From Candidatus Methylomirabilota bacterium (GTDB taxonomy: Bacteria > Methylomirabilota > Methylomirabilia > Rokubacteriales > CSP1-6): a DNA stretch of 64,000 nucleotides. The stretch covers positions 31,674 to 95,673 of the forward strand of contig DATFYA010000021.1 in NCBI GenBank assembly GCA_035315345.1, written 5' to 3'. Below, piece after piece: positions 40,298-63,845 of the stretch (positions are counted from its first letter, which is position 1; each line of letters opens with the position of its first letter). The position numbers and the translations under genes are program-made. Under the pieces are notes generated by a model. It was given only the letters and a program-made list of their open reading frames with translations, was not told the origin of the DNA and searched no databases.

Positions 40298-40373
40298 TGG
40301 TGGAGACGAGGGGAGTCGAACCCCCGACCTCGGCGTTGCGAACGCCGCGCTCTCCCAACTGAGCTACGTCCCC
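40298..40373 (-). tRNA. tRNA-Ala (anticodon CGC)
   Basis: The reverse complement GGGGACGTAGCTCAGTTGGGAGAGCGCGGCGTTCGCAACGCCGAGGTCGGGGGTTCGACTCCCCTCGTCTCCACCA folds as a 76-nt cloverleaf. It has the G3:U70 Ala identity pair, anticodon loop TTCGCAA and an encoded CCA. Confidence 0.9.
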
Positions 40374-43640: not shown

Positions 43641-44858
43641 CTACAGCTCGCCGCGCAGGGCGGCCACCGCCTCCGCCAGGCGCCGGATGTCCTCGGCGGT
43701 GTTGTACACCGAGAAGCTCGCGCGCAGCGTGCCGACGATGCCGAGGCGCTTCATGAGCGGCTGGGCACAGTGATGTCCGGCCCGCACCGCGATCCCGCGC
43801 TGGTCGAGGAGCGCGGCGCCGTCGTGCGGATGAAGGCCCTCGACGTTGAACGCCACCACCGCGCCCTTCATCTCCGGATTGCGCGGGCCGTAGAGCGTCA
43901 CGCCGGGAATCGGCGCCAGCGCGTCCATGGTCGCCGCGGTGAGCGCCTGCTCGTGCGCGGTCACCTGGCTCATGCCGAGCTTGCCGAGGTATTCGATGGC
44001 CGCCTGCAGCCCGACCGCGCCCGCGATCGGGGGGGTGCCCGGCTCGAAGCGCCACGGCAGGTCGTTCCACTGGGCGTGATCGATCCAGACCTCCTTGATC
44101 ATCTCGCCCCCGCCCCACGCCGGCTCGAGCCCCGCCAGGATTTCTCGACGGCCATACAGAACGCCAACGCCGGTCGGGCCCAGCATCTTGTGACCGGAGA
44201 AGGCGTAGAAGTCGGCGCCGAGCGCGGTCACGTCCACCGGCAGATGGGGCACGGCCTGGGCGCCGTCGACCACCACCAGCGCGCCCGCGCCGTGCGCCGG
44301 CTCGGCGATGCGGGCGATCGGGTTGATGGTGCCGAGCACGTTGGACACGTGCGCCACCGCCACCACGCGCGTGCGCGGCGACAGCAGGCGGGCGAACGCG
44401 TCGAGGTCGAGGTATCCCTCGCCCACCACCGGGATCGCGCGGATGATCGCGCCGCGATCGCGGCAGACCATCTGCCAGGGGATCAGGTTCGAGTGGTGCT
44501 CCATCTCGGTGACCACGATCTCGTCCCCGGGCTGGAGCGTCCGCCCGATCGCCTGCGCCACCAGGTTGATGCCTTCGGTGGTGCCCCGGGTGAAGACGAT
44601 CTCCTCGCGGCTCGGCGCCCCGATGAAGGCGCGCACCGCGTCGCGGGCCGCCTCGTAGCGCTCGGTGGCCTCCTCACCGAGGGTGTGCAGGGCGCGGTGC
44701 ACGTTGGCATGGCTCGTCTGGTAGTAGTGCTGCACCGCCTCGATGACCTGGGTCGGCTTCTGGCTGGACGCGGCCGAGTCGAGGAACACGAGCGGGTGGC
44801 CATTGACGATTCGGGACAGGATCGGAAAGTCTCGGCGGGTCTTCTCCCCCATGTTCAT
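43641..44858 (-). CDS. sufS: cysteine desulfurase, SufS/CsdA group II
   Basis: Aminotransferase class V with the PLP lysine in FSGHKMLGPTGVG and the active-site Cys loop RAGHHCAQP. Its ATG overlaps the sufU stop (ATGA). Confidence 0.85.
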   Translation of the reverse strand: MNMGEKTRRDFPILSRIVNGHPLVFLDSAASSQKPTQVIEAVQHYYQTSHANVHRALHTLGEEATERYEAARDAVRAFIGAPSREEIVFTRGTTEGINLVAQAIGRTLQPGDEIVVTEMEHHSNLIPWQMVCRDRGAIIRAIPVVGEGYLDLDAFARLLSPRTRVVAVAHVSNVLGTINPIARIAEPAHGAGALVVVDGAQAVPHLPVDVTALGADFYAFSGHKMLGPTGVGVLYGRREILAGLEPAWGGGEMIKEVWIDHAQWNDLPWRFEPGTPPIAGAVGLQAAIEYLGKLGMSQVTAHEQALTAATMDALAPIPGVTLYGPRNPEMKGAVVAFNVEGLHPHDGAALLDQRGIAVRAGHHCAQPLMKRLGIVGTLRASFSVYNTAEDIRRLAEAVAALRGEL

Positions 44859-45226
44859 CGCGTCGCCTCGCTCTCGAGCGCCGCCCGGAGGACGGTGAGC
44901 GGCAGGGCCACGCACTTCATCCGCGACGGCCGGATGTCCGAGTCCAGGCGCTCCAGTAGATTCGCGGTGGTGAGCTCCCCGGCCCGGCTCGCCGGCTGGC
45001 CCTCCATCATCTCCAGCAGCAGGTCGGCGGAGGCCGCGGAGATCGCGCAGCAGTCGCCGCTCCAGCGTGCCTCGGTCACGCGGCCGTCGGCCAGGCGGCC
45101 CTGGATGCGCACGCGATCGCCGCAGAGCGGGTTCACGTCCTCGGCCGACATGTCGGGCCGCTCGATCGCGCCGCGGAAGCGCGGCTTCCGGAAGCGGTCG
45201 CGGATGACGTTGCTGTAGAGCGCCAT
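44855..45226 (-). CDS. sufU: SUF-type Fe-S cluster assembly/sulfur-acceptor protein SufU (NifU/IscU-like)
   Basis: 123 aa with the conserved NPLCGD...GDCC...RMKC Cys ligands characteristic of SufU. Confidence 0.75.
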   Translation of the reverse strand: MALYSNVIRDRFRKPRFRGAIERPDMSAEDVNPLCGDRVRIQGRLADGRVTEARWSGDCCAISAASADLLLEMMEGQPASRAGELTTANLLERLDSDIRPSRMKCVALPLTVLRAALESEATR

Positions 45227-45227
45227 G

Positions 45228-46271
45228 TCACTCCGACAGCTCCCCGCGCACCGCGCTCTGGCGATAGGGCGGGAAGCGGTAGGCGCTGTCCCGCGAGAGC
45301 AGGCCGCCGTGGCCCAGCGTGGCGATCTCCGGCGCGCCGGTGGCCTCGCCGGTCAGGATGCGCGGGAGGACCAGGTCGAACGTGGTGGCCTGCGAGAACA
45401 TCCCGCAGGCCGGCATTCCCAGCACCGGATGCCCGCGCAGGTCGGCGATCCACAGCAGGCTGCCCGGATGCGCGGGCGCGCCGTGGCGGAGCATCCGGCC
45501 GCCCAGCTGCTCCAGCCCCGCGAACATGGGGTCGAGCGGGTCGAGCGAGCCCGCCCCGGCCGCGATCAGGATGTCGGCGCCGGCCGCCAGCAGGGCTGCC
45601 ATCTCCCCCGCCATCGCCTTCCCGTCGCCCGCGGCATAGCGCACCGGCAGCAGCCGCGAGCCGAACCAGTCGATCTTCTCGGTCAGCGACGACTCGAACC
45701 GCTGCCGCTGCGGCGGCGCCAGGCTCTCGCGGCTCAGCGCGCCGAGGACACGCGGCACGAACGGCGTCACCGTGACGAGACCGCCCGCGGTCCACGCCCG
45801 GCTCTCCGCTTCCTTCACCAGCCGCTCGGGAATGGCCAGCGGGGTGATCTTGGCCTTGGCCACCGCCTCGCCCGCTTCCACCGGCTGTAGATCGAAGAGC
45901 GTGAACACCGACATGCCCTCGAGCCGGTTCACCGCCTGCAGGGCGGCGACGTTCACGCGCACCAGGCCGCGACGCTGTCCGACCAGGGTCCACTGGCCGC
46001 CGACGTAGCCCTTCACCTGGACGTTGGCCCCGCACGCGGCGGCGGCCAGGCGAGCGCCGGCCGGCTCCTCGTGGACATCGCCCGGCTCGATCTCCAGGAG
46101 ATGCACTTCCGGCCACGGCAGCGCGAGCAGCCGCACGGCGGCGGCGGCGTCGAGCACCTGGCCCTTGTTGATGGCCACCTTTCCGGCTGAGTCGCGCACG
46201 TCGTGACAGGCGATGCGCCCCTCGAGGGCGTCGGCCGTCACGGTGTCGGGCTTGATGGTGATGGCTTTCAT
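45228..46271 (-). CDS. molybdopterin-binding (MoeA/CinA-like) accessory protein of the Mo-hydroxylase cluster
   Basis: The start is MKAITIKPD. A C-terminal MoCF-biosynthesis-like domain (ILIAAGAGSLDP) is present, and the gene lies among cox/xdh maturation genes. Family assignment is tentative. Confidence 0.4.
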   Translation of the reverse strand: MKAITIKPDTVTADALEGRIACHDVRDSAGKVAINKGQVLDAAAAVRLLALPWPEVHLLEIEPGDVHEEPAGARLAAAACGANVQVKGYVGGQWTLVGQRRGLVRVNVAALQAVNRLEGMSVFTLFDLQPVEAGEAVAKAKITPLAIPERLVKEAESRAWTAGGLVTVTPFVPRVLGALSRESLAPPQRQRFESSLTEKIDWFGSRLLPVRYAAGDGKAMAGEMAALLAAGADILIAAGAGSLDPLDPMFAGLEQLGGRMLRHGAPAHPGSLLWIADLRGHPVLGMPACGMFSQATTFDLVLPRILTGEATGAPEIATLGHGGLLSRDSAYRFPPYRQSAVRGELSE

Positions 46272-46380: not shown

Positions 46381-47469
46381 TCATTTAAGGCCTCGGCGCA
46401 CTTTCTCGGAGATGGGCATGCCGGTGGCGTGGCGCTGTGTGGCGAGCGCCTCGGCCAGGATGCTGAGCGCGATCTCGGGCGCGGACTGCGCGCCGAGATC
46501 GAGCCCGATCGGCACGCGCACTCGCGCGAGCGCCTCCTCGCTGACCCCGTCCTCGCGCAGCAGGTTGAGGATCGCGGCCCCGCGTCGGGTGCTGCCGAGC
46601 AGGCCGATGTAGCCGACCGGCGTGCCCAGCGCGTGGCGCAGCACCGGCAGGTCGTACTTGTAGTCGTGGGCTACCAGGATCAGCGCGGTGGTCGGGATGA
46701 GCGGCACCTGCGTGACCAGCTCGGACGGCACGCCGATCCGCAGGTCGTCCACGTCGGGGAAGCGCTCGCGGGTGGCGAACCGCGGGCGACCGTCCACCAC
46801 GATGGTGCGGAAGCCGAGCGTCTTGGCCATCGAGGTCAGCGGCATCGCGACGTGGCTCGCCCCGACCACCAGCAGCGTGGAGGGCGGCCCGAAGACCTCG
46901 GCGAAGGCGCGCACGTTCTCGAGGAACAGCGTGCGCGACTTGCCCGTGGCCAGGGCCTGGCGGGCTTCGGCCTCGAATCGCTCGTCGAGGAAGGCGTCGC
47001 CCAGCGTGCCCTCTCGGGTGCCGGTGTCGAGGAGCAGCAGCTTGGCCCCGTTGTGCGGTGGGTCCAGGCGCGTGACGATGACCGCGCGGCCGCCCGCTTC
47101 GGCGTGGGCGCGCGCCCGGTCGTCGAACACCACGGTGGCGCTGCCGCCCGGGCCGAGCGTGACCGGCTCAACGAAGACCTCGATCGTCCCCCCGCAGGTC
47201 AGCCCGATCTCCCAGGCCTCCTCGTCGCCCAGGTTCAGCTCGAGCAGGCGAGGCGCGTTCTTGTCCAGCACGTCGGCCGATTCCTCGATGACCTGCGCGT
47301 CCACGCACCCGCCGATGGTCACCGAGCCGAGCACGCGCCCGCCCTCGCCCACCAGCATCTTCGCCCCTTCCTTGCGGGGCGTGGTGCCGCGGGTGTTGAC
47401 CAGCGTGGCCACCGCCACCTTGGCCTCGCTCTTGTCCAGCTGATCCAGATGACTCGAAAGCTCGCTCAT
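46381..47469 (-). CDS. xdhC: XdhC/CoxI family molybdenum cofactor insertion chaperone
   Basis: XdhC_CoxI N-terminal domain plus a Rossmann-like C-terminal domain (LLVVGASHVAMPL). The likely start is MSELSSHLDQ. The ORF-track start at 47697 is an extension. Confidence 0.8.
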   Translation of the reverse strand: MSELSSHLDQLDKSEAKVAVATLVNTRGTTPRKEGAKMLVGEGGRVLGSVTIGGCVDAQVIEESADVLDKNAPRLLELNLGDEEAWEIGLTCGGTIEVFVEPVTLGPGGSATVVFDDRARAHAEAGGRAVIVTRLDPPHNGAKLLLLDTGTREGTLGDAFLDERFEAEARQALATGKSRTLFLENVRAFAEVFGPPSTLLVVGASHVAMPLTSMAKTLGFRTIVVDGRPRFATRERFPDVDDLRIGVPSELVTQVPLIPTTALILVAHDYKYDLPVLRHALGTPVGYIGLLGSTRRGAAILNLLREDGVSEEALARVRVPIGLDLGAQSAPEIALSILAEALATQRHATGMPISEKVRRGLK

Positions 47470-47480
47470 GTCTGCCTCGG

Positions 47481-48638
47481 CTACCTCAGCTTGAGATGCC
47501 CGGCGAGGTCCCGGAGGCTCGCCAGGTTGTGCGCGGCCGCGAAGTGGTCGACCAGGGGCAACGCCGCGGCCATGCCCCGGGTCAGGGGCTCGTAGGACGG
47601 GTTGCCCAGGAGCGGGTTCAGCCAGATCAGCCGCCCCGCCTTTCGCTTGATGGTCAGCATCTCGTTGGCGAGCAGCTCGGGCTCGCCGGTGTCCCACCCA
47701 TCCGACAGCAGCAGCACGATCGTGTGCCGGTCGACGAGGTGCCCCCAGCGGGCATTGAACTCCTGGAGCGACTCCCCGATCCGGGTGCCGCCCGAGAAGT
47801 CGCGCACCTCGGTCAGCTTCGCCAGCGCCTGTCGGTACGAGGCACCCTTGAGATGCTCGGTCACGCGGGTGAGACGCGTGGAAAAGGTGAAGGTCTCCAC
47901 CCGCCCGAAGACGTTCTGCAGCGCGTAGAGGAACTGGAGCAGGAACCGGCTATAGAGATCCATCGAGCCCGAAACGTCGCACAGCAGGACCAGCCGGATT
48001 TTGCGCCTCCGGCGCTCGCGGCGGCGCAGCTCGATGATCTCGCCCTTCATCAGGTTGGCCCGGATGCTCCGGCGCAGGTCGACCACGCCCCCGCGCCGGG
48101 TCGGGCGCTTGCGGCGGCTGATCCGGCGGGCCAGCCGCTTGGCGATCAGGATCGTCAGCCGCGCCACCTCGTCCAGATCCTCAACCGGGAACGCCGAAAA
48201 GTCTTGATCCATGAGGATCTCTTTGTCACTGACCCCCGGGACCTCCAACGGCTCTCCATCGTCCTCCGCCTGCTCCTCCCAGCCCTCGAGCGCCACCGAC
48301 ACCTTCTTCTGCGCGGCCGCCTCCGCAGCGCTGTTGCCGGCGTGCTCCTCGGGAATCGCGGCCTCCGCGGGCGTCGTCAGGCCGTCGAGCCCCTGCCCCT
48401 CGGCGGCCTGGAAGCGCCAGAAGGCCTCGAAGCAGCGGTCGAAAGCGGGAAACTCCTCGTGTCGGGCCACCAGCGTGGTGCGCAGGGCCAGGTAGACGTC
48501 CCGGCGATCGAGCAGGTCCACCGCCTCGAGCGCGCGCACGCCGTCCATCATCTCGCCGATGGTCAGGGGCAGCCCCGCCGCCCGCAGCATGTGACCGAAG
48601 CGGAGGACCGCGGTGGTGAGATCGCGCGGGCCCGCCAT
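47481..48638 (-). CDS. coxE: VWA domain protein CoxE-like
   Basis: C-terminal von Willebrand factor A domain with a MIDAS motif (LLCDVSGSM). It is co-located with coxD, as in CODH/xanthine dehydrogenase accessory sets. Confidence 0.8.
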   Translation of the reverse strand: MAGPRDLTTAVLRFGHMLRAAGLPLTIGEMMDGVRALEAVDLLDRRDVYLALRTTLVARHEEFPAFDRCFEAFWRFQAAEGQGLDGLTTPAEAAIPEEHAGNSAAEAAAQKKVSVALEGWEEQAEDDGEPLEVPGVSDKEILMDQDFSAFPVEDLDEVARLTILIAKRLARRISRRKRPTRRGGVVDLRRSIRANLMKGEIIELRRRERRRRKIRLVLLCDVSGSMDLYSRFLLQFLYALQNVFGRVETFTFSTRLTRVTEHLKGASYRQALAKLTEVRDFSGGTRIGESLQEFNARWGHLVDRHTIVLLLSDGWDTGEPELLANEMLTIKRKAGRLIWLNPLLGNPSYEPLTRGMAAALPLVDHFAAAHNLASLRDLAGHLKLR

Positions 48639-48639
48639 C

Positions 48640-49542
48640 CTAGCCCGCCTTGCTATCCACCGGGCTCACGAAGCGCTTGAGTCCGCTCGCGGTCAGCTCC
48701 CGCTTGAAGCGCTTGACGTCGTCGGCATCCTTGAGCACGCAGCCGAGCGTCTCCAGCACCAGCTCCTCATCGAGGTGATCGGCGTGCAGCGAGGAGAGCG
48801 CCTGGGCCCAGTCGAGCGTCTCGGCCACGCCCGGGACCTTGGCGAGGCGAACCGTGCGGAGGCTCTCCATGAAGCGCGAGATCTGGCGCGCGAGGGCCTC
48901 GTTCACTCCCGGCACCTTGCGCATCACGATCCGCACTTCCTTGTCGAAGCCCGGGAAGTCGATCCACAGGTAGAGGCACCGCCGGCGCAGGGCGTCGGAC
49001 AGCTCGCGGACGCGGTTCGAGGTCAGGATGACGTACGGCGGATGGGTCGCCTTGACGGTGCCGATCTCGGGGATCGTCACCTGGAACTCGGACAGGACCT
49101 CCAGGAGAAAGGCTTCGAACTCCTCGTCCGCGCGGTCCACCTCGTCGATGAGCAGCACCGGGGGCTTGCCGTCCTGGCTGATCGCCTGCAAGAGCGGACG
49201 ACGGATCAGGAACGGCTCGGAGAAGATCGTGGCCTCCTTCTGCGAGAGCGTGTGGGTGGTGCTCTCCTCGAGCTTGATGTGCAGCAGCTGCTTGGGATAG
49301 TTCCACTCGTAGAGCGCTTGCGCGGCGTCGAGCCCCTCGTAGCATTGCAGGCGGATCAGGTTGGTGTGGAGCATCCGCGCCATCACCTTGGCGACCTCGG
49401 TCTTGCCCACGCCCGCGTGCCCCTCGATGAGGAGCGGCTTCTTGAGCGTCATGGCCAGGTGCACGGACGTCGCGATGGCGGGGTCGGTGACGTAGTCCGC
49501 CGCTTCCATCATCTGCTCGATCTTCTCGATCTCGGCTCTCAT
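48640..49542 (-). CDS. coxD: MoxR-like AAA+ ATPase CoxD
   Basis: AAA_5 domain with Walker A (GHAGVGKT) and Walker B (LLIDEVDRA). Confidence 0.8.
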   Translation of the reverse strand: MRAEIEKIEQMMEAADYVTDPAIATSVHLAMTLKKPLLIEGHAGVGKTEVAKVMARMLHTNLIRLQCYEGLDAAQALYEWNYPKQLLHIKLEESTTHTLSQKEATIFSEPFLIRRPLLQAISQDGKPPVLLIDEVDRADEEFEAFLLEVLSEFQVTIPEIGTVKATHPPYVILTSNRVRELSDALRRRCLYLWIDFPGFDKEVRIVMRKVPGVNEALARQISRFMESLRTVRLAKVPGVAETLDWAQALSSLHADHLDEELVLETLGCVLKDADDVKRFKRELTASGLKRFVSPVDSKAG

Positions 49543-49580: not shown

Positions 49581-50183
49581 CTACCCGGCCGGCGGCCCGG
49601 CGCGACGCGTCGCCCGGATCTTCTCATAGTCCCCCGGGGTATCGACGTCCGGAGGCATGGCGAGGTCGAAGTCCACCCACTCGATCCGCGTCGGGTCCCG
49701 CTGGATGATCGGCCGGGCGCCCTGGTCGCCCCCGAGACGCAGCAGCTCGGGGAAGATTCCGCGCTTGAACAGCACCGGGTTGCCCTGTCCGTCGCGATAC
49801 CGCGGTGCCACGATCGGCTTGTCGCTGGTGCGTCGCGCGGCCAGCAAGGCCGGGACGATCGACGGCGGCAGCATCGGCTGGTCGCCCAGCGCGATCAGGG
49901 CCCAGTCGGCGGACGCGGGCAGCGCGCCGATGCCGACCCGGACCGAGCCGGCCTGGCCCTCCTCCGGCGCCGGGTTCACCACGATCTGCACCTCGAGGCC
50001 GCCGAGGGCCGACTCGATGGCCTCCACCGCGGGCCCCGACACCACCCAGACCGAATCGACGCCGCCGCTCAGCACCGCCTCGACCGCGTGGCGGACGATC
50101 GCCCGGCCGTCCAGCAGCATGAGCAGCTTGGCCTGCCCCATGCGGCGCGAGAGGCCGGCGGCGAGGATGACCGCCGCGATCAC
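49581..50183 (-). CDS. mocA: molybdenum cofactor cytidylyltransferase (MobA-like NTP transferase)
   Basis: The N-terminal motif AVILAAGLSRRMG is typical of MobA/MocA nucleotidyltransferases. The neighbouring molybdoenzyme predicts an MCD-type cofactor. Confidence 0.75.
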   Translation of the reverse strand: MIAAVILAAGLSRRMGQAKLLMLLDGRAIVRHAVEAVLSGGVDSVWVVSGPAVEAIESALGGLEVQIVVNPAPEEGQAGSVRVGIGALPASADWALIALGDQPMLPPSIVPALLAARRTSDKPIVAPRYRDGQGNPVLFKRGIFPELLRLGGDQGARPIIQRDPTRIEWVDFDLAMPPDVDTPGDYEKIRATRRAGPPAG

Positions 50184-50260: not shown

Positions 50261-51124
50261 CTACTTCACGGCCGCCGCGGCCGCCTCCATCGCGCGCTTG
50301 GCGAACACGCGCAGCAGATGGCTCTTGTACTCGACCGAGCCCTGCAGGTCGGCCTGGACGTCCACGCCCTCGGCCGCCTTCTCGGCGGCGGCCTGGATCG
50401 ACGCGGCGTCGGTGCCCTTGCCGGTGATCGCCGCCTCCACGCCCTTGGCGCGGACCGCTTTCGTGCCGGCGCCGGTGACGCCCACGCTGGCCTTGCCGAT
50501 CTTGCCGCCGTCGACGCTCAGCACCGCGGCCACCCCCACCACCGCGAAGCGCGACGCCGGGTGCGGGAACTTCATGTAGGCGGCGCCGGTCTTGGGCGCC
50601 ATCGCGGGCACCCGCACCTCGGTCAGGATCTCGTCGGCGGCCAGCGCGGTGGTGAGCAGGCCCTTGAAGAAATCGTCGGCCTTGATCGTCCGCTTGCCCT
50701 TCGGTCCCTCCGCCACCATCTCGGCCCCGAGCGCGATGATCGCGGCCGGGTAGTCCGCGGCCGGGTCCGCGTGCGCGAGGCTGCCGCCGATCGTGCCCAT
50801 GTTGCGCACCATCGGGTCGCCGATCTGCGCGGCCACCGCGGCGAGCACCGGGCACCTCGACTTCACCACCGGCGAGGACTCGACCTGGTAGTGCGTGGTC
50901 ATCGCGCCGATGACCAGCGCGCCGCCTTCCTCCTTGATGCCGGACAGCCCGGGAATCTTGCGCAGGTCGACCAGGTGCTTGGGCTGGGCCAGGCGCAGCT
51001 TCATGGCCGGTAGCAGGCTGTGGCCGCCCGCGAGGAGCTTGGCGTCGTCCTTGTGACGCCCGAGCAGGTCCAGCGCCTCTTTCACCGTCCCCGGCGTGTA
51101 GTACTCGAACTGAGCTGGGTACAT
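50261..51124 (-). CDS. coxM: xanthine dehydrogenase family molybdoenzyme, FAD-binding medium subunit (CoxM-like)
   Basis: FAD_binding_5 plus CO-dehydrogenase flavoprotein C-terminal domain (AGGHSLLP...). Confidence 0.85.
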   Translation of the reverse strand: MYPAQFEYYTPGTVKEALDLLGRHKDDAKLLAGGHSLLPAMKLRLAQPKHLVDLRKIPGLSGIKEEGGALVIGAMTTHYQVESSPVVKSRCPVLAAVAAQIGDPMVRNMGTIGGSLAHADPAADYPAAIIALGAEMVAEGPKGKRTIKADDFFKGLLTTALAADEILTEVRVPAMAPKTGAAYMKFPHPASRFAVVGVAAVLSVDGGKIGKASVGVTGAGTKAVRAKGVEAAITGKGTDAASIQAAAEKAAEGVDVQADLQGSVEYKSHLLRVFAKRAMEAAAAAVK

Positions 51125-51137
51125 GTCGGCGTCTCCC

Positions 51138-53498
<2,361 letters not shown>

Positions 53499-53507
53499 GG
53501 TCGCGCC

Positions 53508-53981
53508 TCACTTCCCCGCCATCTGCTCGGCGGCGTACTGGATGGCCTTGACGATGTTGTGGTACCCCGTGCAGCGGCACAGGTTGCCTTCCAGGTCGTG
53601 GCGGATCTGCGCCTCGGTGGGTCGCGGGTTGCGCTGCAGCATCTGGTGCGCCGACATGATCATGCCCGGCGTGCAGAAGCCGCACTGCAACCCGTGCTTC
53701 TCCCAGAACCCGTTCTGGATCGGATGCAGCTTGCCGTCCTTGGCGAGGCCCTCGATGGTGAGCACCTGCGCGCCCTCGCACTGCACCGCGAGCAGCGTGC
53801 ACGACTTCACGGCCACGCCGTTGACGTGCACCGTGCACGCCCCGCACTGGCTCGTGTCGCAGCCGACGTGCGTGCCGGTCAGACCCGCCTGCTCCCGGAT
53901 GTAGTGCACGAGCAGGAGCCGGGGCTCCACGTCGTGGGACTGGGGGGCGCCGTTGATCGTCATCGACACGGTCTTTTTCAC
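53508..53981 (-). CDS. coxS: [2Fe-2S] small subunit (CoxS-like)
   Basis: Two [2Fe-2S] motifs (CDTSQCGAC...CGFC...CRCTGY). The GTG start ([14 protein letters not shown]) is preceded by an AGGAGG RBS. The S-L-M gene order is typical of form II clusters. Confidence 0.85.
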
Positions 53982-54053
53982 TGCGCTACCTCCTGGGTGA
54001 AGGGTCCGAGGCCGGGAAAACGCCCACAACCGTATGCCGGGGCGAGGACGGTG

Positions 54054-55304
54054 TCAAGGGGTGCCGCCGAGGAGGCGGCGACCTTCGATGCGGGCCTGCT
54101 CCAGGACTTCGCGGACCGCCACGCCTCGGTCGCGCGCGATGCGTCGGACCTCCTCGAACTCGGGTGTCACCGTGACCACGCGACCCTCCAGACGGGAGAC
54201 CTTGAAGTCCACCGGCCCGTACATCGTGTCGAGACGCACCATCTCCCGGTCGAGCCGGGCGCGCTGGTAGGCGGTCCACCGCACCCCGATGGTCGAGGAC
54301 TCCTCGAAGAGCACCCGGGACAGCTCGGTCACCCGACCGGGCTCGCACAGCGCGGTGAGCACGATGCCGGGACGGCTCCGCTTCATGATGACCGGCGTGA
54401 GCCAGGCGTCGAGGGCGCCCGCGGCGAGCAGGCGCTCGAGGAGGGGTTCGTAGAGCTGTGGCGACATGTCGTCGATGGTGGTCTCGACCTGGACGATGGT
54501 CTCGGCCGGCGCGGTCACCGCCGCCTCGCCCACGAAGAGGCGCAGCACGTTCGGAGTGTCGAGCTCCATCGTGCCGGCGCCGTAGCCGACCGCGGTGACC
54601 CGCATGGCCGGCATCGCCCCCGCCCCCGCGGCCAGCGTCGTCAGGATGGCCGCGCCGGTCGGGGTCACCAGCTCGCGCCGGATGCCGGTGTCGAGCGTGG
54701 GAAAGCCCTTCAGCATCTCCGCGGTTGCGGGACCCGGCACCGGCATCTTGCCGTGGGGACCCTCGATGAAGCCGCCGCCCACCGGCAACGCGCTGAAGTG
54801 GACCGCGTCGATGCCGAGCAGGTAGAGCCCGATGCACGAGCCGGTGACGTCCACGATGGCGTCGACGGCGCCCACGTCGTGGAATTGCACGCGCTCGGGC
54901 GTCGTCCCGTGTACGCGGGCCTCCGCCGCGGCGAGCCGGCGGAAGACGCGCGAGGCCATGTCGCGTACCGCGGGTGCCAGGCGGCTACCGTCGAGGATGC
55001 CGAGGATCTCCTCGAGCCCCCGGTGCCCGGAAGCCCGATGCCCGGTGGAGTGCGCGGGCCGCGCGCCCTGGGCGGCCCGGCCCATGTAGCCCGGGTCCTG
55101 CTCGTAGCCGTCCAGGTGCACGTCGACCTTCGTGGCCCGGAAGCCGGCCTTCATGACCTCGCGGCGCTCCAGCCGGTAGCCGGCCACGCTGAGGCCGGCC
55201 AGCTCGCGCTCGAGTGTGTCGAAGGAGGCGCCGGCGTCGACGAGCGCGCCGAGGATCATGTCGCCCGAGGCGCCGCTCGGGCAATCGAAGTAGGCGATCT
55301 TCAT
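54054..55304 (-). CDS. larC: nickel-pincer cofactor biosynthesis protein LarC (CTP-dependent nickel insertase, DUF111)
   Basis: The conserved N-terminus is MKIAYFDCPSGASGDM. The ORF-track start adds MSGPPQ at 55322. Full-length architecture is LarC1-LarC2. Confidence 0.8.
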   Translation of the reverse strand: MKIAYFDCPSGASGDMILGALVDAGASFDTLERELAGLSVAGYRLERREVMKAGFRATKVDVHLDGYEQDPGYMGRAAQGARPAHSTGHRASGHRGLEEILGILDGSRLAPAVRDMASRVFRRLAAAEARVHGTTPERVQFHDVGAVDAIVDVTGSCIGLYLLGIDAVHFSALPVGGGFIEGPHGKMPVPGPATAEMLKGFPTLDTGIRRELVTPTGAAILTTLAAGAGAMPAMRVTAVGYGAGTMELDTPNVLRLFVGEAAVTAPAETIVQVETTIDDMSPQLYEPLLERLLAAGALDAWLTPVIMKRSRPGIVLTALCEPGRVTELSRVLFEESSTIGVRWTAYQRARLDREMVRLDTMYGPVDFKVSRLEGRVVTVTPEFEEVRRIARDRGVAVREVLEQARIEGRRLLGGTP

Positions 55305-55330
55305 CTGCGGGGGCCCCGACATGGCCCCCG

Positions 55331-55452
55331 CACTCCCCCCATCGGCGGGCAGCCGGGTGCGTCAGTCACCGCCACTCCCCCCATCGGCGGGCAGCCGGGT
55401 GCGTCGGTCACCGCCACTCCCCCCATCGGCGGGCAGCCGGGTGGGTCACCGC
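55331..55452. repeat. 3 x 42-bp perfect tandem direct repeat at the larB/larC junction
   Basis: cactccccccatcggcgggcagccgggtgcgtcagtcaccgc at 55331..55372 is repeated at 55373..55414 with one substitution. A third copy at 55415..55452 has a 4-nt deletion. The third copy contains the larB stop codon (55446..55448). Confidence 0.95.
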
Positions 55453-56204
55453 AACTTGGAGGCGAGCTTGTTGATCTGATTGGCCTGGGCGGCGGCGCCG
55501 TAGCCGTTGTCGATGTTGACCACCGACACGCCGGGCGCGCACGAGTTCAGCATGGCGAGCAGCGCGGCCACGCCGCCGAGCGAGGCGCCGTAGCCCACGC
55601 TGGTCGGGACCGCGATGACCGGCCGGTCCACGAGGCCACCCAGCACGGTCGGCAGCGCGCCTTCCATGCCCGCCACCGCGATGATCGCGTTGGCCTCGTT
55701 CAAGCGGTCGAGGTGCGGCACCAGCCGGTGCAGCCCGGCCACGCCGCAGTCGAACAGCCGCTCGACCGCGTTGCCCATCGCCTCGGCGGTCACCGCGGCC
55801 TCCTCGGCCACCGGCTGGTCGGACGTGCCCGCGCTCACCACCACGATGAGGCCGACGCCCTCGGACGGCGCCGGATTGACCACGACCAGCCGGGCCATCT
55901 CGTGAACCCGGCACGGCAGCCCGCTCGCGAGCAGCGCCTCGATCACGTCGGCGGAGGCGCGGGTGGCCAGGACGTTGTGGTGGCCCTCGGCGAGCCGGCG
56001 CCCGATCGCCACCACCTGCTCCGGCGTCTTGCCCTGGCAGAAGATCGCCTCGGGCACGCCGTGACGGAGCGAGCGATGCACGTCCACGCGCGCGAAGCGC
56101 AGGTCCTCGACCGGCAGGTCGCGCAGCCGGGCCAGCGCCTGCGCGGGGCTGATCGTCCCGCGCGCGACCGCCTCGAGCAGCGCGGCTACTTTTTCCCGAT
56201 CCAC
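55446..56204 (-). CDS. larB: nickel-pincer cofactor biosynthesis protein LarB (PurE-like NaAD carboxylase/hydrolase)
   Basis: LarB N-terminal domain plus PurE-like C-terminal domain (VVVSAGTSDQPVAEE...GMEGALP). The candidate GTG start at about 56204 overlaps the larE 3' end by about 19 nt, so the start is uncertain. The 426-aa ORF-track call is an extension. Confidence 0.8.
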   Translation of the reverse strand: MDREKVAALLEAVARGTISPAQALARLRDLPVEDLRFARVDVHRSLRHGVPEAIFCQGKTPEQVVAIGRRLAEGHHNVLATRASADVIEALLASGLPCRVHEMARLVVVNPAPSEGVGLIVVVSAGTSDQPVAEEAAVTAEAMGNAVERLFDCGVAGLHRLVPHLDRLNEANAIIAVAGMEGALPTVLGGLVDRPVIAVPTSVGYGASLGGVAALLAMLNSCAPGVSVVNIDNGYGAAAQANQINKLASKLR

Positions 56205-57019
56205 TTGAGCGCCTCGTTGGCGCTGCCGCTGCGAAAGCCCTGCAGGTCGAGGGTGACGTAGAGATAGCCCAGCTCGCGGAACCGCCGCACGATCGCGGTG
56301 TGGCGGTCCTCCTGCCACAGCCGGCCCATCTCGTCGGGCGGCAGCTCGATGCGCGCCAGGCGGTCGTGATGGCGCACCCGGAACTGGCGGAAGCCGAGCC
56401 CGCGCAGAAACGCCTCCGCCTCGTCGATCTGCCGCAGCTTGGCCGGCGTGATGAGATCGCCGTACTGGAAGCGCGAGGACAGGCAGGCGAACGAGGGCTT
56501 GTCCCACGTGGGCAGGCCGAGATCGCGCGACAGCGCGCGGATCTCCTCCTTCCACAGCGCGGCCTCGATCAGCGGCGCGCGCACCCCGCGGGCCTGGGCG
56601 GCCTTCATGCCCGGCCGGTGATCGCCGAGGTCGTCCATGTTCGCCCCGTAGACGACCTGCGCGACGCCGGCCCGACGGGCGATCGGCTCCAGCCGCGAGA
56701 ACAGCTCCTCCTTGCAGTGAAAGCACCGGTCCGGCGAGTTGCGCGCGTACTCGGGCCGGTCCAGCTCGTGCGTGCGCACCACCTCGTGCCGCAGGCCCAG
56801 GAGCGCGGCGAGGCGGCGCGTCTCCTCGAGCTCGGCGGCCGGGTAGGTCTCGGAGTCGGCGGTGACCAGCAGCGCGTCGGCGCCCACCGCGTCCTTCGCG
56901 GCGCGGGCCAGGAAGGTGGAGTCCACCCCGCCGGAGAAGGCCACCACCACGCGGCCCATGCCGCGGACGATGTCGAGCAGCCGGTGGTACTTGTCGGCGA
57001 GCGCGGCTTCGCGGGTCAT
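56186..57019 (-). CDS. larE: nickel-pincer cofactor biosynthesis ATP-dependent sulfur transferase LarE (PP-loop ATPase)
   Basis: PP-loop SGGVDS in VAFSGGVDSTFLA. The likely start is MTREAALADKYHRLL. It contains CFHC plus ACLSSR, three cysteines in total. Confidence 0.8.
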   Translation of the reverse strand: MTREAALADKYHRLLDIVRGMGRVVVAFSGGVDSTFLARAAKDAVGADALLVTADSETYPAAELEETRRLAALLGLRHEVVRTHELDRPEYARNSPDRCFHCKEELFSRLEPIARRAGVAQVVYGANMDDLGDHRPGMKAAQARGVRAPLIEAALWKEEIRALSRDLGLPTWDKPSFACLSSRFQYGDLITPAKLRQIDEAEAFLRGLGFRQFRVRHHDRLARIELPPDEMGRLWQEDRHTAIVRRFRELGYLYVTLDLQGFRSGSANEALKWIGKK

Positions 57020-57023
57020 CCGC

Positions 57024-58019
57024 TCAGGCAAGCATGGGCCCGGCCAGCCGGGCCAGCGGAACGATCGGTCGCGCGCCCACGTGGCCGATGACCTCGGCGG
57101 CGGCCAGCGATCCGAGCCGTCCGCAGGTTGGCAGGTCGAGTCCCCGACACATGCCGTAGAGTACCCCCGCCGCATAGAGATCGCCGGCCCCGGTCGTGTC
57201 CACCACCGCGCTCACCGGGTGCGCGAGGACCGTATGGACCTTGCCGCCGCCGATCAGCACCGACCCGTCCGCGCTCCGGGTGAGGGCCGCGATCTCACAC
57301 TGGTCGCGGACGTGCCGGAGGGCTGAGTCGAAGTCGCCGACCTGGTAGAGGGCGCGGATCTCCGCCTCGTTCGCGAAGAGGATGTCCACGTGATTCTGGA
57401 CCAGGTCGCGGAACGCGGCCCGATGTCGATCGACGCAGAAGGGATCCGACAGGGTCAGGGCGACCTTGCGCCCGGCCGCGTGCGCGATGGCGGCGGCGGC
57501 GCGGAAGGCTTCCTGGGCCTCGGGCGGATCGAACAGATACCCCTCCAGATAGAGGATGCGGCCGCGGGCGATCGGCGCGCGGTCCACGTCGGCGGGGCCG
57601 AGTCGCACGGAAGCGCCGAGAAACGTGCCCATGGTGCGCTGCGCGTCCGGGGTGACCAGGATGAGGCACCGCCCGGTGGCCGGCCCGGAGGTGGCCCGGG
57701 GGGTGTCGTAGCCCACGCCGGTCGCGCGCAGGTCGTGACCGAAGACCTCTCCGAGCTGATCGTCGCGCACCTTGCCCACGTAGTGCGCGCGGCCGCCGAA
57801 CGACGCCACGCCCACCATCGTGTTGGCCGCGGAGCCGCCCGAGATCTCGACGCCCGGGCCCATCGCGTCGTAGAGGGCGCGCGCCCGATCCTCGTCGACG
57901 AGGTGCATGGTCCCCTTCACCAGGCCCTGGCGGCCGAGCATCGCGTCGTCGGCGTGGCTCAGCACGTCGACGAGCGCGTTGCCGATGCCGACCACGTCGA
58001 GGTCGCCCGGGCTAGCCAC
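57024..58019 (-). CDS. PfkB/ribokinase-family carbohydrate or nucleoside kinase (adenosine kinase-like)
   Basis: 331 aa with the PfkB signature DTTGAGD and N-terminal GG-type substrate lid motifs. Confidence 0.7.
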   Translation of the reverse strand: MASPGDLDVVGIGNALVDVLSHADDAMLGRQGLVKGTMHLVDEDRARALYDAMGPGVEISGGSAANTMVGVASFGGRAHYVGKVRDDQLGEVFGHDLRATGVGYDTPRATSGPATGRCLILVTPDAQRTMGTFLGASVRLGPADVDRAPIARGRILYLEGYLFDPPEAQEAFRAAAAIAHAAGRKVALTLSDPFCVDRHRAAFRDLVQNHVDILFANEAEIRALYQVGDFDSALRHVRDQCEIAALTRSADGSVLIGGGKVHTVLAHPVSAVVDTTGAGDLYAAGVLYGMCRGLDLPTCGRLGSLAAAEVIGHVGARPIVPLARLAGPMLA

Positions 58020-58922
58020 GGCGGCGGGCCTTCGCCTTCGGGGGGAAATAGCGGTCCAGCAGCAGCGCGAGGCGCTGCCGCGTGCGCGGCGGGAAGGCGG
58101 CCGGATTGGTGATCACCGCGCTGGCCAGCGCGTCGCCGCAGCCCGCGTGGCAGGGCTTGCCCACCCGCGGGATGACCCGCTTCAGCACCACCTTGGCGGT
58201 GGCGACGTTCTTCAGCAGGTTCGCCACCACCGCCTCCACGCTGACCGCGGCGTGGGTCTCGTGCCAGACGTCGTAGTCGGTGGCCAGGGCCAGCGTGGCG
58301 TAGCACAGCTCGGCCTCGCGGGCCAGCTTGGCCTCCGGCATGTTGGTCATGCCGATCACCGAGACGCCCCAGCGGCGGTAGATCTGCGATTCACCCCGGG
58401 TGGAGAACTGAGGGCCCTCGATGCAGATGTAGGTGCCGCCACGGTGCACCCGGGCGCCGGCCTCGCGCCCACCGGTCTCCAGCAGGTCGCCGAGCGCCGG
58501 GCACACCGGATCGGCGAGGCCGACGTGGCCGACGATCCCATCGCCGAAGAAGCTCGAGATCCGTCGCTTCGTGTGGTCGTAGAACTGGTCGGGGATGACG
58601 AGGTCCAGCGGGTGGATCTCCTCCTTCATGCTGCCCACCGCGCTGACCGAGATGACCCACCGCACGCCGAGCGACTTGAGCCCGTAGATGTTCGCGCGGT
58701 AGTTGATCTCGCTCGGGGTGACCCGGTGGGCGCGGCCGTGGCGCGGCAGGAAGACGACTCGGCGATCGCCCAGTCGGCCGGTGCAGTAGGCGTCCGACGG
58801 GTGGCCGAACGGTGTCTTGACCCGGACCCAGCGCACGTCCTCGAAGCCCTCGATCTCGTAGAGCCCGCTTCCGCCGATGATGCCGAGCGCGGGCTCGGAC
58901 GGCCGCGACGCCGGCGCCATCC

Positions 58923-58926
<4 letters not shown>
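58012..58926 (-). CDS. mtnP: S-methyl-5'-thioadenosine phosphorylase
   Basis: PNP/MTAP family (IGGSGLYE...TPFG...GMTNMPEA) with the C-terminal MTAP-specific region. Confidence 0.85.
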
Positions 58927-60247
<1,321 letters not shown>

Positions 60248-60251
<4 letters not shown>

Positions 60252-61288
60252 GCGGTGACCTCCTCGCGGAGCTGGCCGCAGGCCGCGCCGATATCTTCTC
60301 CCTTGCTCCAACGAATGGTCGCGGTGATGCCGTGCTCGAGCAGGATGGCCTGGAAGGCGAGGATGCGCGGCAGGGACGGCCGGCCGAAGCCCGAGCCCTC
60401 CCAGTCGTTGAACGGAATCAGGTTGATCTTGCCTCGGATCCCCTTGAGGAGCCGCACCAGTCGCCGCGCGTCCTCCGCCGCGTCGTTCACGCCGTCGAGC
60501 AGCACGTACTCGAAGGTCATCCGCTGGCGGAACGGCAGCGGGAAGCGCCGGCACGCGGCCAGCAGCTCCTCGATCGCGAAGCCGCGGTTGATCGGCATGA
60601 TGCGGTCGCGGATCTCGTTGCTGGTGGCGTGGAGCGAGATCGCGAGATTGACCTTCAGGCTCTCCTTGGCCAGCCGCTCGATTCCGCTCACCAGCCCCAC
60701 CGTCGAGACGGTGATGCGACGGGGCGAGAAGCCGAAGGCCCGCGGGTCGGTGAGTAGCCGCAGCGACTTCACGGTCGCCCCGTAGTTGGCGAGCGGCTCG
60801 CCCATGCCCATGTACACGATGTGAGTGATGCGCTCGCCCGGGCCGAGCCCGCGTCGCGCCACCATCACCTGCCCGACGATCTCGCCCGCGCTCAGGTTGC
60901 GCTCGAGGCCCATGGTGCCGGTGAAGCAGAACGCGCAGCCGAATCCGCAACCCACCTGGGTGGAGACGCACAGGGTGAGGCGGTCGCCATCGGGCATGAG
61001 CACCGACTGCACGCGCGCGCCGCCGGCGTAGCGGAGCACCAGCTTCTGGCTGCCGTCCTGCGAGGGCGTGCGCCGCTCGACCTCCGGTAATTCGACCCGC
61101 ATCGAGGCGGCGAGCGCGGCGCGGAAGTCGCGAGGGAGATCGGACATGGCCTCGATCTCGGCCACGCCCCGGGTGAAGATCCAGCCCGCGAGCTGGCGGC
61201 CCCGGTACCGTGGGACGCCTAGCGATTCGGCCAGCTCCTCCATCTCGGCGGGGAACAGATCGAGCAGATTCGTCGATGACATACGCAC
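60248..61288 (-). CDS. rlmN: 23S rRNA (adenine2503-C2)-methyltransferase RlmN
   Basis: Radical SAM motif CVSTQVGCGFGCAFC and the RlmN/Cfr family N-terminus. Confidence 0.85.
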
Positions 61289-61510: not shown

Positions 61511-61540
61511 TTGCCTGGCTTCGCGGCCATCGCCTATACT
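61511..61540 (+). promoter_or_regulatory. candidate sigma70 promoter (TTGCCT-N18-TATACT) for the plus-strand membrane protein gene
   Basis: The -35 lies at 61511..61516 and the -10 at 61535..61540, with the ATG at 61565 preceded by GGAGG. The ORF-track TTG start at 61511 coincides with the -35 hexamer and is rejected. Confidence 0.4.
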
Positions 61541-61564
61541 CGCGGCGTCGAAACGGAGGATGAG

Positions 61565-61957
61565 ATGCGCGAGATGGCGATCCTCGAGCCGGGCTGGCGG
61601 TCGGCGATCTTCGGCTACCTTGTCTTCGTCGTTGCGCTCTTGCTCACCGTGATCGTGTCGTCGGGCGCCGTCGCGCGCTCCGGAGCCATCGTCGGGCTGC
61701 TGGCGGTGTCCCTGCCCGCTCTCGTCGCCTGGCTCTACATCGAATCCAGCGGCTGGATGGGGCCCGAGCCGGCGTGCCGGATCGTGCGCGGCGCCGTCAT
61801 CACGATCGCGCTGTCGTGCAGCCTGGTCGGACTGTTCCTCACCGTCTGGTCGTTCTCACGCCTCGGCGCCTTCCTGGTCCTCATCGAGGGGCCGCTCTGG
61901 TACCTCGCCATCAGCGCGGTCGCCTATATGCGCGACGAGGCGGACCCCGGCACGTGA
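61565..61957 (+). CDS. hypothetical integral membrane protein (4 TM)
   Basis: MREMAILEPGWRSAIFGYLVFVVALLL... with four hydrophobic helices. No recognisable family. Confidence 0.5.
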   Translation: MREMAILEPGWRSAIFGYLVFVVALLLTVIVSSGAVARSGAIVGLLAVSLPALVAWLYIESSGWMGPEPACRIVRGAVITIALSCSLVGLFLTVWSFSRLGAFLVLIEGPLWYLAISAVAYMRDEADPGT

Positions 61958-62339: not shown

Positions 62340-63845
62340 CTACTTCAGGCTCGCCTCGTGCAGCAGCAGCCACTGGTCCGCTCGTGGTGTCCACGTCACC
62401 CGGTCGCGCGTCGCGTAGATGTCGACCTGCTGCATCAGGAAGACCCACGTGGCGTCCTCGACCATCGCGCGCGCCAGATCGGCGTAGATCTTCTTCCGCC
62501 GGGCCGGGTCCATAGTCGAGCGGCCCGCGTCGAACAGCGCGTCGATCTTCTCGTTCTTGTAGTAGAGGCCGCGGCCTTTCGACGAGACCAGGTTGTACAG
62601 CTCGTCGCCGTCCTGCATCGGACCGCCGAGCCCGAGCAGGTAGGCGTCGGAGAACTGCTTGCCGAGGTAGCGCTTGAAGTAGGCGCCCCACTCCGCCACC
62701 TGCACGCGCGGCTTGACGCCGGCCTTCTGCCACTGCCCGCCCAGCGCCTCCGCGATCTCCTTGTCGCCTTGATAGCGTCCGGCCGGCGCGTCCAGCGAGA
62801 TCTCGAGCCCGTCGGGATAGCCCGCCTCGGCGAGCAGCCGCCGCGCCCGCGCCGGATCCGGCTGGTATCCCTTCACCGACGGATCGAAGCCGAACATCTG
62901 CGGAGTGAACGGCCCGTCCATTCGACGTCCGTTGCCGTCGAGCACGCTCTTCACCAGCGCGTCCACGTCGGTGGCGTAGTTCAGGGCCTGGCGCACCCGC
63001 ACGTCGGAGAGCGGCTTCTTGAAGGCGTTCAGTCCCAGATAGATGATCCACGTGCTGGGCACCCGCTGGACCCGGATGCCGCCGACGCGCTCCAGCTCGC
63101 TGGCCAGGTTGGGCGGCAGCGTGTCGATGAGGTCGACCTCGTTGTTCCGGAGCGCGGCGGCGCGGGTGAACGGCTCCGGGATCGGCTTGAACACGATGCG
63201 GCGGATGCGGGGCGCGCCGCGCCAGTGGCGATCGAACGCCTCGACCACCAGGCGATCGTCCTTCACCAGCTCGACGAACCGGAACGGACCGGTGCCGACC
63301 GGCCGCAGGGCGAGCCCCGGGTTGCCCTTCTCGGCGGTGTACTTCGGCGGCACCATCGGGAAATCGACCAGCCGGTTCAGCAGCGGCGCGTAGGGCTGGC
63401 GCAGCACGAGGTTGACGGTGTGGTCGTCCACGACGTCCACGCGCGCGACCTCGCCGATGTTCGCCCGGTTGGGAGACTTCTGGTTGGGATCGAGCACACG
63501 GTCGAAGGTGAAGCGGACCGCCTCCGCGTCGAACGGCTCGCCGTCGTGGAAGATCACCCCGCGCCGGAGCCTCAGCTGCAGCGTCAGGTCGTCGAGCGCC
63601 TTCCACGACTCCGCGAGCTGGGGCACGATCCGGTTCTCGGCGTCGCGGCCCACCAGCGAGTCGAACATGCTCACGCCCACCTTCGCCCGGATGGACGAGA
63701 GGTTCATGGTCGGATCGAGGTTCTCGGGCGTCCACGGCAGGCCCACGCGCAGCTCCCCCGCGGACTGCCCCGGCGCCGGGACCGGGGCCCCGAGCAGGAG
63801 CAGGAGGACGAGCGCGCTCCGGCGGAGCGCCACGGAGACGCTCAT
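62340..63845 (-). CDS. ABC transporter substrate-binding protein, family 5 (peptide/nickel/opine type)
   Basis: 501 aa with a signal peptide and the SBP_bac_5 fold. Its ATG overlaps the stop of the upstream gene (ATGA). Confidence 0.8.
   Translation of the reverse strand: MSVSVALRRSALVLLLLLGAPVPAPGQSAGELRVGLPWTPENLDPTMNLSSIRAKVGVSMFDSLVGRDAENRIVPQLAESWKALDDLTLQLRLRRGVIFHDGEPFDAEAVRFTFDRVLDPNQKSPNRANIGEVARVDVVDDHTVNLVLRQPYAPLLNRLVDFPMVPPKYTAEKGNPGLALRPVGTGPFRFVELVKDDRLVVEAFDRHWRGAPRIRRIVFKPIPEPFTRAAALRNNEVDLIDTLPPNLASELERVGGIRVQRVPSTWIIYLGLNAFKKPLSDVRVRQALNYATDVDALVKSVLDGNGRRMDGPFTPQMFGFDPSVKGYQPDPARARRLLAEAGYPDGLEISLDAPAGRYQGDKEIAEALGGQWQKAGVKPRVQVAEWGAYFKRYLGKQFSDAYLLGLGGPMQDGDELYNLVSSKGRGLYYKNEKIDALFDAGRSTMDPARRKKIYADLARAMVEDATWVFLMQQVDIYATRDRVTWTPRADQWLLLHEASLK

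Follow-up and report, generated by a model that had tools for sequence, protein, structure and literature searches.

Does a complete set of genes for making nickel-pincer nucleotide (NPN), a cofactor, standing directly beside a molybdenum hydroxylase cluster, signal a functional link between the two? The question is raised by a stretch of 64,000 nucleotides (nt) from a Candidatus Methylomirabilota bacterium (order Rokubacteriales; contig DATFYA010000021.1, positions 31,674 to 95,673), here called the window, in which larE, larB, and larC are followed by a cluster of the form II coxSLM type. An earlier reading of this DNA from its letters alone (the sequence-only reading) had proposed that lar and cox are probably co-transcribed and that their pairing could flag a new NPN client nearby or shared regulation.

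Our analysis favors a plainer answer. We consider it likely that two independent and ordinary modules lie side by side here and that their adjacency is inherited synteny of the lineage, not functional coupling. To the first module would belong larC and, ahead of it, the overlapping run rlmN-mtaB-mtnP-pfkB-larE-larB. The lar products would make the NPN cofactor: LarB would carboxylate and hydrolyze nicotinic acid adenine dinucleotide (NaAD), a [4Fe-4S]-type LarE would insert two sulfurs, and LarC would insert nickel. The second module would start at a sigma-70 consensus promoter of its own, overlapping the larC stop codon, and would consist of coxSLM, encoding a form II hydroxylase of the xanthine dehydrogenase family, together with a complete maturation set of mocA, coxD, coxE, xdhC, a MoeA-like gene, sufU, and sufS. 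The operon boundaries of both modules are predictions from the sequence. Coordinates and family assignments are collected in Table 1.

A conserved candidate promoter between larC and coxS

The coxS gene starts with a GTG at position 53981, preceded by the Shine-Dalgarno sequence AGGAGG at 53993-53988. From the larC stop codon (54054-54056) to this start there is a gap of 72 nt, in agreement with the earlier estimate of about 70 nt. For comparison, we gathered relatives by a LarC scan of GTDB species representatives, which gave 80 loci, nearly all from Rokubacteria/Methylomirabilota and with LarC identities of 56 to 82%, and searched them by tblastn with the window proteins. When the 110 nt upstream of coxS were aligned over all loci, a motif emerged in which TTGACA is perfectly conserved and is followed, after a spacer of 16 to 18 nt, by a TAnnnT-type hexamer. 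In the window, larC ends in a TGA that falls inside the -35 hexamer of this predicted promoter. The pattern TTGACA-N16-18-TANNNT has a single match in the 64 kb, where 0.02 would be expected.

The motif is also closely confined to this position across the relatives. With a relaxed -10 element (T[A/T]NNNT), 59 of 64 loci (62 from relatives and two copies of the window's own sequence) have it no more than 110 nt ahead of coxS, against a background of 0.004 per 122 nt. The related loci, 2.3 Mb searched on both strands, hold 74 occurrences, about 67 of them at the post-larC or pre-coxS position; occurrences other than those no more than 110 nt from coxS number 13, and 7 of these 13 lie directly after larC or slightly further upstream of coxS. 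Where larC and coxS are separated by inserts, the motif is kept in 14 of 18 loci. One such locus is L003, from a close relative with a contig of 5.4 Mb, in which a gene encoding helix-turn-helix (HTH) domains is inserted between larC and the motif, so that the motif stayed with coxS. In another locus, L012, the motif still follows larC but precedes a MoeA-like gene, a ferredoxin gene, and an aldehyde:ferredoxin oxidoreductase gene.

Consensus and conservation together predict that this motif is a dedicated sigma-70-type promoter of the cox unit. A generic promoter and terminator scan did not list it, because its -10 hexamer, TACGGT, matches TATAAT at 3 of 6 positions and thus falls under the threshold. 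The same scan gave no convincing terminator after larC.

Insertions concentrate at the larC/coxS junction

The gene order rlmN-mtaB-mtnP-(PfkB)-larE-larB-larC-coxS-coxL-coxM recurs widely among the relatives, and the physical linkage of lar and cox that had drawn attention to this locus is real, being kept across Rokubacteria species with LarC only 61 to 82% identical. We scored a junction as interrupted when more than 300 nt lay between its two genes, taking the relatives with both genes as the denominator. No interruption was found at rlmN/mtaB (0/53), mtaB/mtnP (0/57), larE/larB (0/73), coxS/coxL (0/58), or coxL/coxM (0/42), and none at the xdhC, moeA-like, nifU, and sufS junctions, each scored in 15 to 22 relatives; larB/larC was interrupted in 3 of 79. 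The larC/coxS junction was interrupted in 18 of 63, by inserts of 0.3 to 9.4 kb. Compared with the pooled rlmN/mtaB, mtaB/mtnP, and larE/larB junctions (18/63 versus 0/183), the excess is pronounced (Fisher's exact p = 3e-12). Seven more loci carry a gene other than coxS after larC, and in all, something else directly follows larC in 25 of the 70 informative relatives.

The inserts are mostly unrelated to one another, including adenylate-cyclase/AAA/tetratricopeptide repeat regulators, the alpha and beta subunits of an E1 dehydrogenase, a metallo-beta-lactamase, AnmK, and a major facilitator superfamily transporter, as well as the epimerase and cupin genes and the second cox cluster taken up below. 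The insert of L003 (11185-12600, minus strand) is an open reading frame (ORF) of 456 amino acids (aa) with transposase-like HTH_23, HTH_28, HTH_29, and HTH_32 domains; it lies on the opposite strand, in a locus whose LarC is 80% identical to that of the window. With its concentration of inserts, the larC/coxS junction has the character of a transcription-unit boundary and not of an operon interior. The interruption pattern and the conserved promoter in the spacer both argue that larC and coxS would not form a single operon, and the co-transcription previously thought probable gains no support from a junction that is a preferred point of insertion and rearrangement.

The two gene sets can also be found apart. 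Two of the seven loci with another gene after larC, L012 and L060, keep rlmN through larC and have no cox cluster in the full 10 kb downstream, and L012 is also without sufU-sufS while larEBC remains.

Strand adds nothing to the case for a link. The window has a GC content of 70%, and about 56 of its 58 genes, called from GC phase at third codon positions, gene calling, and ORF scoring, lie on the minus strand. Only a gene for a metallophosphoesterase (39214-39876) and an ORF that has no assignment (61511-61957) lie on the plus strand. Since nearly the whole window is one minus-strand run, the shared direction of larC and coxS is uninformative. The co-directional run from rlmN to the agmatinase gene, which lies downstream of sufS, was correctly described in the sequence-only reading but holds no significance.

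The pairing is specific to Rokubacteria in the sample

To set the relatives against more distant lineages, we collected 80 non-Rokubacteria larC loci from a metagenome scan with an alignment led by the LarC of M. thermoacetica (rebuilt from a PDB alignment). These outgroup loci encode LarC proteins 37 to 49% identical to that of the window, range in GC content from 33 to 75%, and come with flanks that add up to 672 kb. By tblastn at E <= 1e-5, none of the 80 loci contained coxS, coxL, coxM, mocA, coxD, coxE, xdhC, or the MoeA-like gene, and none contained rlmN, mtaB, the 5'-methylthioadenosine phosphorylase (MTAP) gene, or the PfkB kinase gene. A SufS-like match was present in one outgroup locus only and was weak, at 30% identity. 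The lar-cox pairing is thus specific to Rokubacteria in this sample. Its absence from all 80 outgroup loci, and the retention of larEBC without cox in L012 and L060, speak against reading it as a sign of an NPN client or of common regulation.

Nor was a gene like L. plantarum larA found at any of the 80 outgroup loci. A larC neighborhood without larA is the common case in the sample, and such a neighborhood is therefore weak evidence on its own for a novel client.

The NPN genes and the search for their client

The lar genes are intact and contiguous, as had been described, and each identity is borne out by curated models matched over full length and above cut-off; NPN production is predicted from this complete set of LarB, LarC, and LarE. 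The larE and larB genes overlap by 19 nt. LarC also exceeds the cut-offs of TIGR00299 and NF052512 (LarC1, 202 bits versus 90; LarC2, 139 bits versus 50) and matches M. thermoacetica LarC (PDB 12bi) with 339 bits; its true start may be an ATG at 55304. Identical copies of LarC occur on two metagenome contigs, and its closest relatives, at 78 to 95% identity, come, where a name is given, from Candidatus Rokuibacteriota or Methylomirabilota.

The LarE translation contains SGGVDS, a PP-loop of the SGGXDS form, as well as CFHC and FACLSS, which together give a CXXC-C pattern. LarE proteins with CXXC-C are of the [4Fe-4S] type, and the T. maritima enzyme, which shares with the window protein both the SGGXDS PP-loop and the CXXC...C motif, is catalytic and can be supplied with sulfur in vitro by a cysteine desulfurase (PMC9283937). 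By its motifs, the window LarE would likewise be of the [4Fe-4S] type, with predicted cluster binding and desulfurase dependence. The locus shares with the lar operon of L. plantarum the same three biosynthetic families, clustered together. It differs in several respects: the order is larE-larB-larC, larA is missing from the 64 kb, LarC1 and LarC2 are fused into one LarC protein, the genes form part of the rlmN-mtaB-mtnP-pfkB run, and LarE carries CXXC-C where L. plantarum LarE has a single sacrificial Cys176.

The spacer between larB and larC is filled by a 42-nt tandem repeat, which duplicates the Shine-Dalgarno-like GGGGGGAG region preceding larC. Its core is present in three exact copies and nowhere else in the window. 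We considered a conserved regulatory element and rejected it, as the same spacer is without the repeat in every related locus; for this reason the repeat looks like a recent local duplication. A search of the spacers for known RNAs or riboswitches (Rfam E-value search of 40-64 kb) returned only a tRNA-like match and chance snoRNA matches.

The absence of a LarA homolog from the window, also stated in the sequence-only reading, is confirmed. Pfam scans of every called gene gave no DUF2088/LarA (PF09861) match, and phmmer (--max, on six-frame ORFs of at least 50 aa) and tblastn searches of the whole window with L. plantarum LarA, verified as identical to PDB 5HUQ, gave nothing better than E = 2.

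An ornithine cyclodeaminase dependent on NPAD, an adenine-dinucleotide variant, was reportedly described by Desguin in 2025. That larBCE sets occur without larA and imply other clients is established, in line with the earlier reading, and larA-less larC neighborhoods have already been mined for such clients, with NphT of the aldo-keto reductase (AKR) family as the outcome and the NPAD-using ornithine cyclodeaminase found earlier in the same way (PMC13524815). The known non-LarA clients are look-alikes of NAD(P)-dependent enzymes, and text searches of that study for molybdenum-, xanthine-, or carbon monoxide-related enzymes returned nothing (PMC13524815). The window resembles the mined loci in that larB, larC, and larE are present and larA is absent over about 20 ORFs, which is the filter of that pipeline. 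It differs in having no AKR- or ornithine cyclodeaminase-like gene and in its neighbors, a molybdenum hydroxylase cluster and genes for RNA modification and salvage.

Neither an AKR (PF00248) nor an ornithine cyclodeaminase came up when the genes called in the window were scanned with Pfam, and the sole NAD(P)-type oxidoreductase of the window is encoded by a Gfo/Idh/MocA gene about 53 kb away, adjoining lpxA. Nothing adjoining the lar genes resembles LarA or the known NAD(P)-look-alike clients. Every neighbor has an ordinary assignment, if a putative one in the case of the 347-aa ORF with a predicted MoeA-like fold discussed below. Three relatives carry small cupin and NAD-dependent epimerase/dehydratase genes of the short-chain dehydrogenase/reductase (SDR) type directly after larC on the same strand (L055:3035-4030, L067:4139-5403, and L080:11182-12446). 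As NAD look-alikes these were considered as NPN clients and rejected, since the SDR has the canonical TGGAGFIGS Rossmann motif and YxxxK.

The NPN client, be it a LarA-family protein or another NPN enzyme, is probably encoded outside the window. LarA homologs of a His-to-Asn subfamily are listed from metagenome-assembled genomes of Candidatus Rokubacteria (MBM3218464.1) and Candidatus Methylomirabilota (HSB40499.1) (PMC12611868), which makes a LarA-family client elsewhere in this genome plausible.

A form II cox cluster with added maturation genes

The window CoxL scores 739 bits on TIGR02416, under the cut-off of 991, and has the loop AYRGAGR in place of the form I loop AYXCSFR. It is not a form I aerobic carbon monoxide (CO) dehydrogenase by these features, and CO oxidation is not implied by them. 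The AYRGAGR loop makes CoxL form II-like, and with the S-L-M gene order and the domains for [2Fe-2S], molybdenum cofactor (Moco), and flavin adenine dinucleotide (FAD), the predicted product is a form II CoxSLM-type enzyme of the xanthine dehydrogenase family. Its closest solved chain is the CoxL of M. smegmatis (8uem, 673 bits). The cluster shares with other form II clusters the coxS-coxL-coxM order, the AYRGAGR loop, the set of molybdopterin cytosine dinucleotide (MCD), [2Fe-2S], and FAD domains, and the accessory genes coxD, coxE, and xdhC. It differs from them in adding a divergent MoeA-like gene and sufU-sufS.

The MoeA-like gene encodes a conserved protein of 347 aa that falls outside the domain catalogs. 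Its AlphaFold2 model has a mean predicted local distance difference test score of 83, and a Foldseek search against the PDB at E<=1e-3 gave 47 matches, 46 of them to MoeA, gephyrin-E, or Cnx1E and one to MogA. The Foldseek probability is 1.0, yet TM-scores are about 0.3, and sequence matches to MoeA are faint (E of about 0.002 to 0.006). The model suggests that the product of 45228-46271 may be MoeA-like and may represent an uncataloged maturation factor for pterin cofactors. In the window, the gene stands between xdhC and sufU-sufS; the copy in L012 (11276-12316) adjoins the ferredoxin and aldehyde:ferredoxin oxidoreductase genes, not cox. We rejected this ORF as an NPN client given its MoeA-like fold and its company of pterin enzymes, namely xdhC and, in L012, a tungsten/molybdenum pterin enzyme.

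A second, different cox cluster was observed in one relative (L030:15206-20488), where it forms the insert between larC and the usual coxS. It has the form I gene order coxM-coxS-coxL, is 44 to 57% identical, is accompanied by xdhC and mocA, and has a promoter of the same type, TTGACA-N17-TAnnnT, ahead of it.

Alternative explanations

Several points count against two independent modules. Adjacency, whether direct or with inserts, is kept in most sampled Rokubacteria species, with LarC diverging to about 61% identity. Read-through from larC into coxS is possible, because the -35 element overlaps the larC stop codon and leaves the window no room for a terminator. The promoter itself is a consensus match with conservation, and its start site is a prediction. 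Finally, LarE of this type depends on a cysteine desulfurase from outside (PMC9283937), and with a sufS gene 9 kb downstream some sulfur sharing is conceivable.

These points could be assembled into a loose coupling, in which larC and coxSLM would be partly co-transcribed by read-through, SufS and SufU would feed both the Moco sulfuration by XdhC and LarE, and adjacency would have some selective value. In its favor, there is neither a terminator nor space for one between the larC stop codon and the promoter, the T. maritima LarE of the same CXXC-C type is catalytic only with a cysteine desulfurase (PMC9283937), and adjacency is widely retained in the lineage. We nevertheless judge such coupling unlikely. 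The coxS gene has its own conserved consensus promoter, over a third of the informative relatives (25/70) do not have coxS directly after larC, and no outgroup locus has cox near larC, with sufS represented there by the one weak match. The sulfur argument fares no better: sufS is tied to xdhC and the MoeA-like gene (no junction interrupted in 15 to 22 relatives) and not to lar, and L012 keeps larE without sufU-sufS or cox, so that SufS serving LarE is only a thin possibility.

A broader alternative is that this lineage is without any LarA-family protein and that larEBC serves an undescribed client, which might be a conserved neighbor (the PfkB kinase or form II CoxSLM) or a protein elsewhere that has escaped recognition. 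We regard this as improbable.

Of the candidates just named, the PfkB-family kinase encoded directly upstream of larE might work on a precursor of NPN or bind NPN itself, so that the client, or an NPN-related step, would lie in the upstream operon. The rlmN-mtaB-mtnP-pfkB-larE-larB junctions are indeed never interrupted (53 to 73 relatives), and the slot between mtnP and larE is always occupied by a PfkB-family kinase, though from two subfamilies about 30 to 38% identical. An adenosine-kinase-like PfkB fills it in 23 relatives and the window's own contig, and the second subfamily fills it in 38 other loci (e.g., L010:7414-8322); the pattern suggests non-orthologous replacement at a position that stayed fixed. 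The window kinase is close to bacterial adenosine kinase, its best solved relative being 3ubo (353 bits), and neither it nor rlmN, mtaB, or mtnP stands next to larC in any outgroup locus. PfkB enzymes are phosphotransferases and do not perform the hydride-transfer chemistry of NPN enzymes, which counts further against a client role. We hold this account to be highly improbable.

That form II CoxSLM, or the machinery that matures it, could be a new NPN client seems scarcely credible: physical adjacency, and the existence of form II CoxL enzymes without an assigned substrate, are what speak for it. The three subunits have the usual domains for two [2Fe-2S] clusters, Moco, and FAD, the cluster includes all of a Moco/MCD maturation set but no nickel-related gene, larEBC persists in L012 and L060 without cox, cox genes are absent from all outgroup larC loci, and the known non-LarA clients are NAD(P)-enzyme look-alikes, with text searches of PMC13524815 for molybdenum enzymes returning nothing.

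Were the pairing functional, it would point to nickel-pincer enzymes of a third structural class or to a molybdenum hydroxylase that requires nickel, and each of these would be notable. With two independent modules as the preferred reading, the locus is unsuitable as a lead for new NPN clients, and its main value is negative. There are modest positives as well, namely a well-supported, conserved predicted promoter for the form II cox clusters of an uncultured phylum, a divergent, putatively MoeA-like accessory protein that escapes Pfam, and support for larA-less larC neighborhoods being common.

Genomic setting

Table 1 Features of the lar and cox modules, in order of predicted transcription. 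Positions are those of the window.
Feature	Position	Strand	Evidence and remarks
rlmN	60248-61288	-	TIGR00048, 383 bits (cut-off 290); first gene of the packed unit; 4-nt overlap with mtaB
mtaB (radical S-adenosylmethionine methylthiotransferase)	58923-60251	-	TIGR01579, 400 bits (cut-off 357); 4-nt overlap with the MTAP gene
mtnP / MTAP (5'-methylthioadenosine phosphorylase)	58012-58926	-	TIGR01694, 302 bits (cut-off 275)
PfkB-family kinase, adenosine kinase-like, directly upstream of larE	57024-58019	-	PF00294, 158 bits
larE (ATP-dependent sulfur insertase, CXXC-C / predicted [4Fe-4S] type)	56186-57019	-	TIGR00268, 334 bits (cut-off 150), full length
larB (NaAD carboxylase/hydrolase)	55446-56204	-	NF033503, 284 bits (cut-off 175)
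42-nt tandem repeat filling the larB-larC spacer	55331-55448	.	2.8 copies; Tandem Repeats Finder score 222; 96% matches
larC (CTP-dependent nickel insertase, fused LarC1 + LarC2)	54054-55322	-	PF01969, 449 bits, profile positions 1-374 of 375
Predicted sigma-70-type coxS promoter	54029-54057	-	-35 TTGACA 54057-54052; 17-nt spacer; -10 TACGGT 54034-54029
coxS ([2Fe-2S] small subunit)	53508-53981	-	PF01799, PF00111; 157 aa; same call on public contigs
coxL (form II-type molybdopterin large subunit)	51138-53498	-	PF01315, PF02738, PF20256
coxM (FAD subunit)	50261-51124	-	PF00941, PF03450
mocA-like molybdenum cofactor cytidylyltransferase	49581-50183	-	Best match TIGR03310, 161 bits, under the 186 cut-off
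coxD-like MoxR AAA+ ATPase	48640-49542	-	AAA and AAA_5 matches; MadB-family ATPase, 280 bits, below cut-off
coxE-like VWA protein	47481-48638	-	PF05762 VWA_CoxE
xdhC/coxI-family Moco maturation factor	46381-47469	-	PF02625, PF13478; NF045664, 236 bits, below cut-off
Divergent MoeA-like protein, 347 aa	45228-46271	-	No Pfam or NCBIfam match; predicted molybdenum-insertase fold
NifU_N / SufU-like scaffold	44855-45226	-	PF01592, 72 bits
sufS cysteine desulfurase	43641-44858	-	TIGR01979, 575 bits (cut-off 475)

The rest of the window consists of housekeeping genes, which Pfam scans assign to lpxA, lpxD, ompH, bamA, a Clp-family AAA+ ATPase, lolDE-like genes, lysS, prfB, and lnt, and further to nusB, ribH/BA/E/D, ftsY, rodZ, smc, secA, recN, nadK, and others.

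Beyond rlmN, a gene on the minus strand (62340-63845) encodes a family-5 solute-binding protein (SBP_bac_5) whose similarity to binders of the GsiB, DppA, and NikA type is far below cut-off. As part of a nickel importer it is a doubtful candidate, as its NikA/Opp-type matches fall far short of the cut-offs and no permease or ATPase genes adjoin it in related contigs. ARAGORN also called two tRNA genes on the minus strand. The 84-nt tRNA-Val at 31447-31530, overlapping the 3' end of a rhomboid-protease ORF, is probably a spurious call; the tRNA-Ala(CGC) at 40298-40373 coincides with an Rfam tRNA-like match at the same site.

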